64,000 bases of DNA from NCBI GenBank assembly GCA_000004985.1, contig GG738865.1. One strand, written 5' to 3'. A program made the position numbers and the translations under genes. Position 1 is the stretch's first letter. The number at the start of each line of letters is the position of its first letter. The stretch is from Naegleria gruberi. Taxonomy: Eukaryota. Below are positions 4,017-5,586 of this stretch, in pieces. The notes beneath the pieces are model-generated. The model did not search any database and was not told the origin of the DNA. It was given only the letters and a program-made list of their open reading frames with translations.

Positions 4017-4020
<4 letters not shown>

Positions 4021-5586
4021 ATAGTTGCAAAATTATTGAAACATGTACTAATAAATAACATGATTAATGTTGAAATAATGTAATGGAAATAAGGTGAGGC
4101 AATGTTTGATCCGTTTGGACCCAGAAAGGTTGTAGTTGAATTTTTCGTAGAATTACTACTGGTACTATTGAACCAGTGTGAGCTATTTGATGTTGAATTA
4201 CTGAGACTTGGTGTTGATGGACTTGGTATTGGTGTTGGGATGGGAAGAGGTATTGAACTGTTTGAGTTAATAGTCGTGTTACTATTTGTTAAAGTACAAT
4301 TCGAAGCAGTACAATTGCTTGTTGAGTTGTTTACAGAAATACTTGAATTGCTATTGGTGGTCGAATTACTTGCACCATTATTACTGCTGGTTGTATTAGT
4401 GGTGTTATTCACTGTTGGTGTGTTAGTATTGTTGGAAATGGTGGTTGTATTTGTCGTGTTATTCACTGTTGGTGTGGATAGTGAGCTAGGTGTAACAACA
4501 GAGTAAGATTTTACTCCAACAGAAGGTACAACAGACTTGATGAATGATAGGTAATGAGTGGTGTTTGTATAGACACCCTTATTATTATAGGTTTGAGCCT
4601 CTCCACATCCATCATCTCCATAGCTTGACGAATATTAAGCTTAATGAATCAGTCTTACTTACCTTACAATTCCCAAGACAATAAAATCATTTGAGGAATC
4701 CACTCTGAATAATGGGCCACCACTATCTCCAGCACCTATAAAGGTCAGTAATTATAAGAAATAGAAATAACTTACAAGAGTCATGACCGTTTCCTCCTGC
4801 ACAAATTTGATTTGGAGTAATCATATCAAGCAAAAGACAAACACTGACTGGGTTGACAACAACGTTTGTCTTCATCAACATTGTAGGAAGACTTGTACCA
4901 GTTGTATATCCCCAACCAGATACTGTCAATGATTTAGAACCATCAATTGGATAAGTACCTCCTTCAACCTTAGCCAACTTGACCAATGTTCCATCTACTG
5001 GAATAGATGATTGTAATTCGAGAATAGCAATATCATTTCTTGTAGTTTGCTCATCATAATTTGGATGAACTGTGATAGCCTTTCCTCTATATCTGGTACA
5101 AGTACTACATGTTCTGTCATTGGATCCTGGCAAGATGTAGACAGTCGTTGGATTATCAACAGTTGTTCCACTAACAAAACAGTGAGCTGCACTCAGGACA
5201 AAATTTGGAGCAATCAAAGAACCTCCACAATAGTGTTGCCTTGAAGATGATTGAATTGAGACGAGGAAGGGAAATTCATGGGATGAAGCTTGAGTTCCTC
5301 CAGCAATCTTTGAATCCTTGATTCCTCTCAAAATAATAGAGGCAATAGTCAAGCTTGATGGTCTATAACTTTGCTTGTAGGATTGGAAAGCAGGGGTGAA
5401 GTATCTAGTCAATTCCTTGCTGATTTGTTCCTTCTTATTAATATTGAACAAGGATGAAGCTTGCACACTCCCGATAGGATGATTCATCATTAAAAAAACA
5501 CTCATCACTACAACAACCAAACAAAAGATCCTCATTGGATGGTAGTACCCTTGTGCACTGCACTTTTCAATCCTCAATTTATCCAT
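4017..5586 (-). CDS. Secreted trypsin-like (S1 family) serine protease with a S/T/N-rich mucin-like stalk and a C-terminal GPI-anchor-type signal, in 3 exons.
   Basis: Model complement(join(4017..4623, 4663..4735, 4776..5586)), introns 39 and 40 nt, about 496 aa. There is an N-terminal signal peptide (MRIFCLVVVVMSVFLMM...). The catalytic triad motifs are LSAAHC (His), TRNDIAILEL (Asp) and, across an intron, DSC|AGDSGGPLF (Ser). The domain ends GIVSYGDDGCGEAQTYNNKGVYTNTTHYLSFIK. About 150 aa of NxT/NxS-rich low complexity follow, then [31 protein letters not shown], a small-residue site followed by a hydrophobic tail. Confidence 0.8.
4100..4500. repeat. Coding low-complexity/microsatellite-like region (AAT/ACA/ACC-rich) encoding the N/T/S mucin-like stalk of the protease gene.
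   Basis: Reiterated gtgaataacac / aacaccactaatacaacc units produce an open antisense frame (track ORF 4102..4506 on the plus strand), which is an artefact of the repeat. Confidence 0.6.

Follow-up and report, generated by a model that had tools for sequence, protein, structure and literature searches.

The animal proteases prostasin (PRSS8) and testisin (PRSS21) are S1A enzymes tethered by their C-terminus to the outer leaflet of the membrane. In both, the propeptide forms a disulfide to Cys122, and we know of no long, glycan-rich stalk in these animal GPI-anchored S1A enzymes. The TTSPs (matriptase, TMPRSS11D, TMPRSS2, hepsin) are likewise cell-surface trypsin-like zymogens, but their topology is the opposite: an N-terminal signal anchor is followed by stem domains and then by a C-terminal protease held by the Cys122 disulfide. 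The secreted trypsins of fungi (Fusarium oxysporum, 1try; Pleosporales; Sarocladium), of 250-265 aa, end directly after the catalytic domain, without a stalk or a hydrophobic tail.

Here, we describe a protease gene of Naegleria gruberi found in a stretch of 64,000 nucleotides of contig GG738865.1, referred to below as the window. The product of this gene is fairly likely to be the zymogen of a trypsin-like S1A protease, exposed on the outside of the plasma membrane. The gene is intact, lies on the minus strand (5586..4017) and has three exons and two GT..AG introns of 40 and 39 nt. The spliced coding sequence of 1491 nt is in frame and gives a protein of 496 aa; ATG 5586 opens the reading frame, with an in-frame TAA two codons upstream. 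The parts of the gene are the following:

4776..5586, minus strand: exon 1, codons 1-270 plus base 1 of codon 271 (Cys), from the open reading frame and the Pfam Trypsin match; it holds the N-terminal extension, signal sequence, propeptide and catalytic domain to Asp189/Ser190
4736..4775, minus strand: intron 1, 40 nt, GTAAGT...TATAG, phase 1 within the Cys191 (Cys271) codon, split T/GT
4663..4735, minus strand: exon 2, encoding AGDSGGPLFRVDSSNDFIVLGIVS, including Ser195 (Ser275, codon 4722-4724)
4624..4662, minus strand: intron 2, 39 nt, GTAAGT...CAAG
4017..4623, minus strand: exon 3, end of the catalytic domain, stalk, hydrophobic tail and stop codon (4019-4017)

The gene is NAEGRDRAFT_67046 (UniProt D2VDU6, "Peptidase S1 domain-containing protein") and is thus already annotated; its spliced product is identical to the public model XP_002677803.1 from Met34 on. 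The gene might have passed for unannotated, since none of the 120 best matches in the protein homology search was an N. gruberi protein. That reading was ruled out by XP_002677803.1, a member of the 90% cluster to which metagenomic ORF P0001 belongs. The sequence-only reading had taken the DNA to be amoebozoan. The adjoining ORF 5824-7311 is identical to N. gruberi XP_002677707.1, and the host is therefore heterolobosean (Discoba), an amoeboflagellate. The protease gene is flanked by an E2 gene, modelled on the basis of a Pfam match only, and by 67047; on these models, the E2 and protease transcripts are expected to overlap at their 3' ends (4017-4020). Searches of the window gave no further S1 copies by tblastn and no matches in the tRNA and Rfam scans, and a literature search by accession for this gene and its orthologues found no paper mentioning them. 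Proteases of this kind are known, and the gene is a rather ordinary one among them.

At the sequence level, comparison with a homologue that lacks introns and with the gene model in the public databases confirms both splice junctions. Removal of intron 1 restores the frame to AGDSGGP, and removal of intron 2 gives GIVS/YGDDGCG. The homologue P0003 has a continuous reading frame (L004:1422-2765) that aligns without gaps across DSC/AGDSGGP and GIVS/YGDD, and in the public model P0238 both introns are identical to those read here. The earlier exon and intron coordinates, including 4624..4662 and 4736..4775, were exact on the evidence of this alignment and this model. The accompanying claim that the 40-nt intron splits GDSGGP needs correction, since the intron lies in the Cys191 codon, three residues upstream; splicing of intron 1 is still needed to put Ser195 in frame. 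In comparison with a 98.85%-identical strain, intron 1 differs at 3 of 40 nt and exons 1 and 2 together at 3 of 884 nt.

The encoded protein may be divided as follows, from its N-terminus to its C-terminus:

5458..5535, minus strand: predicted signal sequence, residues 18-43, MRIFCLVVVVMSVFLMMNHPIGSVQA/SS (hydrophobicity, -3/-1 rule, homologues)
5308..5457, minus strand: propeptide, residues 44-93 (50 aa), without Cys, ending ...GIKDSK/IAGG
4518..5307, minus strand: S1A catalytic domain, residues 94-330, split by the two introns (Pfam, PDB, AF2)
5182-5184, minus strand: His57, H135 (residue map)
5032-5034, minus strand: Asp102, D185 (residue map)
4780-4782, minus strand: Asp189, D269 (residue map)
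4722-4724, minus strand: Ser195, S275 (residue map)
4116..4517, minus strand: stalk, residues ~331-464 (composition, sequons, low pLDDT)
4378..4473, minus strand: degenerate tandem repeat in the stalk, 27-nt (9-aa) unit, about 3.5 copies, TPTVNNTTNTT units
4017..4115, minus strand: candidate GPI-attachment signal, residues 465-496 and stop (rule-based scan, AF2, relatives)

The catalytic domain matches the entire Pfam Trypsin profile (PF00089, positions 1-220 of 220) over residues 94-323, with 145.3 bits (cut-off 20.6) and E=3.2e-42. The motifs LSAAHC, NDIAIL and GDSGGP map to H57, D102 and S195 in chymotrypsinogen numbering, and G273 aligns to Gly193, which together with Ser195 makes up the oxyanion hole. 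In the S1 pocket, D269, G297 and G311 correspond to Asp189, Gly216 and Gly226, and because these equivalents are present, a trypsin-like specificity (P1 Arg/Lys) is predicted. The three canonical disulfides are present, and position 122 is Ala205, not Cys. The AF2 model has pLDDT mostly above 90 over residues 94-330. In Foldseek it resembles TMPRSS11D, matriptase and the Fusarium trypsin with TM (target) of 0.86-0.90 and rmsd of 2.0-2.5 A, as befits a double beta-barrel fold, and the best PDB sequence match is matriptase (5e-34). The triad and the full-length PF00089 match bear out the earlier description of a complete chymotrypsin-fold protease, which appears to be active.

If the first ATG is used, a 17-residue extension (5536-5586) precedes the signal sequence. 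No other 15-mer of the protein is as hydrophobic as residues 20-34 (KD 3.07). In the AF2 model residues 17-34 are helical, the -3/-1 rule is satisfied at VQA/SS (A43/S44) and homologues begin with similar hydrophobic segments. We infer a cleavable N-terminal signal peptide from these sequence rules and from family conservation. There are three candidate start ATGs, at 5586, 5535 and 5487, the second of which would give a form of 479 aa. The public N. gruberi model begins at the third, which leaves the signal sequence out; this is probably the wrong ATG, and screens for secreted or GPI-anchored proteins would therefore pass the model over.

The n-region that precedes the hydrophobic core from ATG 5586 has 19 residues, basic ones among them, and cleaved signal peptides usually have a shorter one. 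Moreover, in the N. fowleri and N. lovaniensis homologues, 21-27 residues stand before a hydrophobic core of 17-19 residues. Such an N-terminus would also suit an uncleaved type II signal anchor, with the N-terminus, or both termini, holding the protease in the membrane. We consider this very improbable. The N. gruberi core has just ~15 residues and is then followed by a canonical cleavage site, and short classical signal peptides are found in Willaertia, in P0003, in the second N. lovaniensis copy and in N. gruberi 74184. In addition, an N-terminal anchor would lose the catalytic domain on cleavage at K93, as no disulfide to Cys122 could keep the two together.

Activation cleavage is predicted after Lys93. 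Ile94 aligns with Ile16 of chymotrypsinogen, Asp194 (D274) is present, and in the alignments with the PDB chains of trypsin and matriptase, residue 94 pairs with the first residue of the chain. The P1 Lys of the activation site agrees with the predicted specificity of the enzyme itself, so activation by the same or by a sister enzyme is possible. Among the relatives, this P1 residue is Ser, Tyr, Glu, Arg or Lys.

The catalytic domain is followed by a stalk of ~135 aa, in which Ser, Thr, Asn and Pro add up to 73% (residues ~336-470). It includes the stretch PLPIPTPIPSPSTPS, repeated 10-mers and two Cys within SNCTASNCTL. The stalk region holds 21 of the 22 NxS/T sequons of the protein; the 21st, N465-G-S, doubles as the first omega candidate, and the other ~20 lie before it. 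Shuffled sequences of the same composition have 12.7 +/- 2.4 sequons (p about 9e-4), and in the stalk of P0003 sequons are likewise enriched beyond composition. Over residues 344-468, AF2 gives pLDDT below 50 and no secondary structure, so the stalk is predicted to be disordered. An NxT/NxS-rich sequence after the protease had been correctly recognised. The term mucin-like was loose: N-sequons dominate, and there is just one short Pro/Ser/Thr stretch and the one degenerate 9-aa repeat.

Low-complexity sequence rich in Asn, Ser and Thr is a frequent feature of AT-rich genomes, and this counts against the main reading. Between the two strains the stalk has diverged ~6x as fast as the catalytic exons, which is close to the neutral rate, with 9 of 13 differences changing an amino acid. 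The stalk also contains the degenerate tandem repeat, and in relatives it can be as short as 22 or as long as 163 residues. Considering as well that the closest non-heterolobosean relatives, the fungal trypsins, are plain secreted enzymes, the product might be a secreted soluble or a lysosomal/digestive trypsin-like protease, whose extension is neutral low-complexity sequence, clipped or irrelevant. This seems quite improbable, as the tail is kept in 10 of 12 relatives across genera regardless of the length of the stalk. Between the strains, the reading frame and all 22 of 22 sequons are kept despite 9 amino-acid changes in stalk and tail, and two independent stalks have sequons above composition.

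The last ~24 residues are hydrophobic and uncharged and reach the stop codon. Our own simple rule-based scan gave the omega candidates N465(GS) and N468(IA), 31 and 28 residues from the end, with a short spacer before the hydrophobic tail. Taken together with family conservation, these sequence rules suggest GPI anchoring. An uncharged hydrophobic tail placed after the protease domain is consistent with what the sequence-only reading had proposed, a C-terminal GPI-type signal in a prostasin-like layout and not a type II one. AF2 predicts a 24-residue helix (472-495), and the hydrophobic C-terminus found in every family member suits a helix as well as a GPI signal. It could be, then, that the tail is not exchanged for GPI and that the helix stays in the membrane as the one span of a type I protein, leaving practically nothing on the cytoplasmic side. 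We regard this as unlikely. The tail, which has no charged residue, ends the protein, so that there is no basic cytoplasmic flank, and no basic stop-transfer residues come after it. It is interrupted by Ser, Thr and Asn, with KD values of 2.1-2.3 versus 3.07 for the signal sequence, although such moderate hydrophobicity (best 12-mer KD 2.27) and these polar residues count against the GPI reading as well. Small-residue triplets lie at omega-site distance, and the omega-type triplet SMA is common to four N. fowleri and N. lovaniensis genes. A C13 GPI:protein transamidase has been listed for N. fowleri (V212 g4551, E 1e-117 vs human), and the protease complement of N. gruberi is reported to be broadly similar to that of N. 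fowleri (PMC8296547). In the literature, a Naegleria GPI transamidase was found only in the supplementary table of Herman et al. (PMC8296547).

For a GPI-anchored zymogen, the following sequence of events may be proposed. The N-terminal signal sequence would direct the protein into the ER, and GPI transamidase would exchange the C-terminal tail for a GPI anchor at about Asn465-Asn468. The disordered stalk of ~135 residues would receive many N-glycans and keep the catalytic domain off the membrane. By analogy with the family, a cut after Lys93 would free Ile94, which would pair with Asp194 to form the active site. The propeptide would then be released, because it has no Cys and position 122 is Ala, and the C-terminal anchor alone would hold the enzyme on the cell. 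Its role is likely to be limited proteolysis at the surface of the amoeba, on prey, on matrix or on the amoeba's own surface proteins.

An S1 domain with a stalk and a hydrophobic tail is common to 10 of the 12 heterolobosean relatives compared (from N. gruberi, N. fowleri, N. lovaniensis, Willaertia and metagenomes), the tail sequences differing. In a neighbour-joining tree of 233 columns, from which prostasin itself was left out, the heterolobosean sequences form a single clade (99/100 bootstrap). Given this distribution within one clade, the layout is a lineage trait, and it probably arose independently of animal prostasin and testisin. The question of a horizontal origin had been raised, and the tree gives no sign of recent transfer, since the heterolobosean sequences are monophyletic in it and the nearest outsiders are only 35-44% identical; at depth, the clade may be of fungal-like, bacterial or ancestral origin. 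S1 proteases had also been called sparse in amoebozoan genomes and this one noteworthy for that reason. This does not hold here, as at least four S1 genes are annotated in N. gruberi (67046, the 'chymotrypsin' XP_002681411.1, 46418 and 74184) and 11 S01A entries are listed for N. fowleri in Table S11 of Herman et al. 2021 (PMC8296547).

Members of the clade, namely N. fowleri FDP41_012825, N. lovaniensis C9374_005560, Willaertia magna ABK040_008491 and N. gruberi XP_002681411.1, have 42-51% catalytic-domain identity to the N. gruberi protease. FDP41_012825 is V212 g1706, a 'trypsin-like protease' in Herman et al. 2021 (PMC8296547). Common to the clade are two additional Cys in the 70s loop and a phase-1 intron that interrupts the Cys191 codon; N. 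fowleri and both N. lovaniensis copies have this intron where N. gruberi has it. Unlike the N. gruberi stalk, the stalks of these members are shorter (34-109 aa), Ser/Pro/Lys-rich and have 0-3 sequons; the NxT stalk with 21 sequons is matched only by the metagenomic homologue P0003. Synteny does not extend to N. fowleri or N. lovaniensis, where the protease alone matches the window and a tandem protease pair stands beside an M32 peptidase and ELP3, not beside E2 and 67047. The genes of these two species are therefore not necessarily one-to-one orthologues of the N. gruberi gene. In N. lovaniensis, the public model joins two genes into one.

Somewhat short of an even chance, in our judgement, is the broader proposal that Heterolobosea have a clade of lipid-anchored, glycan-stalked trypsin-like proteases whose GPI tethering is independent of that of prostasin and testisin. 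To our knowledge, such a GPI-tethered S1A family would be the first outside animals. If the anchor is real, active trypsin-like enzymes are exposed on the surface of Naegleria, and the design of prostasin and testisin, acquired separately, is a small and clear case of convergent protein architecture. The orthologous surface proteases of N. fowleri (g1706 and its neighbours) would also be open to inhibitors and antibodies. The virulence candidates of N. fowleri are mostly cathepsins, and g1706 and its neighbours are not known to have been discussed among them. Membranes and extracellular vesicles of Naegleria are reported to have serine-protease activity that is PMSF-sensitive and of high apparent mass (PMC9312180). 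If the proposal is true, tethered heterolobosean proteases could explain part of this activity.

Among the known systems, the fungal secreted trypsins are the closest named relatives outside Heterolobosea (40-44% identity) and have the same minimal three-disulfide S1A core with Asp189. The TTSPs give the best matches to the catalytic domain (matriptase in sequence; TMPRSS11D with TM 0.89-0.90). In contrast to them, the N. gruberi protein has its protease domain first, its candidate tether at the C-terminus and no Cys122, and the Pfam search of the protein found no TTSP stem domains. The order of parts is that of prostasin and testisin: signal peptide, short propeptide, trypsin-like S1A domain with Asp189 and C-terminal hydrophobic GPI-type signal, although in N. 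gruberi the signal peptide and the C-terminal tether are predictions from sequence. Prostasin (3e0n_B) matches the fold with Foldseek E=3.3e-20. Identity to animal S1A proteases is about 30-36%, with prostasin and testisin no closer than others, and a fish 'prostasin-like' protein, at 36%, is no higher than many of them. Orthology to PRSS8 or PRSS21 is argued against by the separate heterolobosean clade, in a tree without prostasin itself. The N. gruberi protease further differs from these two enzymes in having Ala205 at position 122 and a Cys-free propeptide, and, between domain and anchor signal, a stalk of ~135 residues that is predicted to be rich in glycans.

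The minus-strand gene at 5586-4017 is already in databases as NAEGRDRAFT_67046 (EFC45059.1, UniProt D2VDU6), an uncharacterised "Peptidase S1 domain-containing protein". The sequence-only reading had described a complete chymotrypsin-fold protease, and this stands: the entire Pfam Trypsin profile is covered (E=3.2e-42), and alignment in chymotrypsinogen numbering places Ile16 at I94, His57 at H135, Asp102 at D185, Asp194 at D274, Ser195 at S275 and Ser214 at S295. Asp189 (D269), Gly216 (G297) and Gly226 (G311) in the S1 pocket predict trypsin-like specificity. By the same alignment, disulfides 42-58, 168-182 and 191-220 are present, and Cys122 and the 136-201 Cys pair are both absent. 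An additional Cys pair, RTCSTC, lies in the 70s loop (residues 161-166; window 5089-5106) and is found in most heterolobosean relatives with variable spacing (C-x2 to C-x10-C). The closest solved structures by match are matriptase (5e-34), Fusarium trypsin and TMPRSS11D. An AlphaFold2 model, with 50 sequences as input, has pLDDT mostly >90 for residues 94-330, and its catalytic domain fits solved trypsin-like proteases with TM 0.86-0.90. Taken together, the profile match, active-site residues and model fit suggest that the domain looks like a working enzyme. As a predicted zymogen, it would become active once cut after Lys93, which would also set free a 50-residue propeptide without cysteine.

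Unspliced, the minus-strand ORF runs from the ATG at 5586 to 4723 (287 codons), through a GTAAGT donor at 4775. Removal of two GT..AG introns, 4736-4775 (40 nt) and 4624-4662 (39 nt), yields a 1491-nt CDS of 496 residues ending in TAA at 4019-4017, so that every exon and intron coordinate first proposed proved exact. The 40-nt intron had been thought to split GDSGGP; it lies instead in phase 1 within the Cys191 codon (GAC TCT T/GT GCT GGA GAT AGT, the slash marking the intron), though Ser195 is out of frame if it is left unspliced.

Four independent lines support this model. P0003, a metagenomic homologue of 447 aa (48% identical), is a single uninterrupted ORF (L004:1422-2765) and aligns gap-free across both splice junctions, GHDSCAGDSGGPLFR and G(I/L)VSYGDD. 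The public protein XP_002677803.1, a member of a 90% cluster whose representative is a metagenomic ORF, is identical to the spliced product from Met34 to the end, and thus shares both introns and the stop codon. The phase-1 intron of the Cys191 codon is positionally conserved in the N. fowleri gene and both N. lovaniensis copies, where it is ~100-165 nt long. Finally, the environmental contig ERZ929261 (3.3 kb) matches window 6792-3488 at 98.85% identity (34 mismatches, 2 indels), with 3 differences per 40 nt in intron 1 against 3 per 884 nt in exons 1 and 2, and the spliced frame is unbroken in both; this identity indicates that a strain very close to N. gruberi NEG-M was present in that sample (PRJEB11402).

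Other introns vary. An extra phase-1 intron within the TAAHC (His57) motif occurs in N. fowleri (L002:6433-6527) and N. lovaniensis (L003:6400-6503) and is missing from the N. gruberi gene, whereas the GIVS/YGDD intron is present in N. gruberi and absent from the other two. Together with intronless P0003, these differences point to active intron gain and loss within the family.

The genes surrounding the protease are as follows.

3384-3603, 3648-3791, 3837-3919, 3964-4020, plus strand: ubiquitin-conjugating enzyme (E2) gene model, four exons (Pfam UQ_con, 1.7e-51)
5824-7311, plus strand: NAEGRDRAFT_67047, divergent neighbour, 237 bp from the protease (intergenic 5587-5823)
1126-3327, plus strand: F-box-like ORF, 733 aa (PF12937, 7.5e-7)

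The convergent E2 gene, with introns of 44, 45 and 44 nt, had no identical protein in the collection searched; its stop and that of the protease share 2 nt of the palindrome TTAA (4017-4020), so each 3' UTR must run antisense through the other's coding exon. NAEGRDRAFT_67047 matches XP_002677707.1 of Naegleria gruberi (820-kb scaffold) residue for residue, placing the DNA in a heterolobosean (Discoba) and not, as had been assumed, an amoebozoan. Its product carries a hydrophobic segment at the N-terminus and weakly matches xyloglucan fucosyltransferase (GT37; PF03254, 1.1e-9); that a putative Golgi glycosyltransferase adjoins the gene for a protein predicted to be heavily glycosylated is probably coincidence. 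The S1 tandem pairs of N. fowleri and N. lovaniensis also have F-box-like genes nearby (L002:10796-11749 and L003:13465-14602, respectively), which may be a synteny remnant or chance.

The N-terminus of the public model can be corrected. Three in-frame ATGs are available (5586, 5535 and 5487), with a TAA two codons upstream of the first. The public model (463 aa) begins at the third, omitting 33 residues that hold the hydrophobic signal core; because it lacks a signal sequence, no secretome or GPI screen would pick it up. Every relative has a hydrophobic segment at its N-terminus, which makes initiation at 5586 or 5535 far more probable. Residues 20-34 (IFCLVVVVMSVFLMM) form the most hydrophobic stretch of the whole protein; downstream of them, VQA/SS fits the -3/-1 rule. 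An N-terminal anchor is a less likely, rival reading.

The stalk (residues ~336-470) is 73% Ser+Thr+Asn+Pro and predicted to be disordered (pLDDT <50 across 344-468). It carries 21 NxS/T sequons, against one in the catalytic domain and 12.7 +/- 2.4 in shuffled stalks (p about 9e-4); in the P0003 stalk, 21 are observed and 11.5 expected by shuffling (p about 3e-4). The proposed NxS/T richness is thus borne out, while "mucin-like" is only loosely apt, because N-glycan sequons dominate and the PTS stretch is single and short (PLPIPTPIPSPSTPS). A degenerate 27-nt repeat occupies 4378-4473. Between two N. gruberi-like strains, exon 3 has 13 differences per 607 nt, nine amino-acid changing, and the stalk differs at ~6x the rate of the catalytic exons; despite this, the reading frame and 22/22 sequons are retained. 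A second extra Cys pair, SNCTASNCTL, is found in the stalk (residues 397-406; window about 4381-4410), with ASNCTL common to P0003.

The last 24 residues are hydrophobic, uncharged and extend to the stop codon, with small-residue triplets N465-G-S and N468-I-A at 31 and 28 residues from the C-terminus. A type I transmembrane helix without a cytoplasmic tail would account for the hydrophobicity; stop-transfer helices, though, normally have a basic cytoplasmic flank, and in sequence the segment has the shape of a GPI-attachment signal. We consider a GPI anchor the probable tether, so the architecture first described holds and its mode of attachment probably does.

The supposed rarity of S1 proteases does not hold. 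N. fowleri has 11 S01A entries (Herman et al. 2021, PMC8296547, Table S11) and the N. gruberi complement is stated to be broadly similar, so these enzymes are neither sparse nor unnoticed in the genus; several N. gruberi relatives were also recovered here. The same source lists the C13 GPI:protein transamidase g4551, and a "trypsin-like protease", g1706, two genes from M32 carboxypeptidase g1704 (Table S11), a spacing that agrees with our N. fowleri locus. In the literature we found no Naegleria S1 protease described as GPI-anchored and no paper citing this gene or any orthologue by accession. The PMSF-sensitive gelatinase activity of 100-260 kDa in N. fowleri extracellular vesicles (PMC9312180) would fit serine proteases that are heavily glycosylated and lipid-anchored, without identifying them.

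A second protein search returned N. gruberi "chymotrypsin" XP_002681411.1 (48%), NAEGRDRAFT_46418 and 74184, N. fowleri FDP41_009595 and Willaertia magna ABK040_008491. A soluble enzyme carrying a neutral extension is a further rival reading, to be set beside the un- or nearly uncharged hydrophobic tail that ends 10 of the 12 heterolobosean sequences examined, preceded in those 10 by a low-complexity stalk, 22-163 residues long. Four genes of one subgroup, from N. fowleri and N. lovaniensis, have an SMA triplet in common, placed where an omega site would be expected. Locus context is not shared with these species, whose genes form a tandem pair adjoining an M32 peptidase and ELP3. In N. lovaniensis (L003:6001-9177; PYSW02000024.1), the 790-aa model C9374_005560 fuses the pair by way of a spurious intron (about 7424-7702); if that stretch is read through instead, the first gene closes with SYDGVLLISGCILLLWLSLVV and a stop near 7475, a hydrophobic tail as in relatives.

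A neighbour-joining tree (233 columns) groups the heterolobosean sequences in one clade (99/100 bootstraps), outside which fall fungal, rotifer, bacterial and metagenomic trypsins; nothing indicates that this particular gene was recently transferred. The analysis adds evidence that the S1-stalk-tail design, as read from sequence, is a conserved trait of this clade. Fungal trypsins, the closest named outsiders (40-44% identity), end right after the catalytic domain, which argues that stalk and tail were added within the heterolobosean lineage. We infer an origin of this tethering separate from that in the animal prostasin/testisin lineage.
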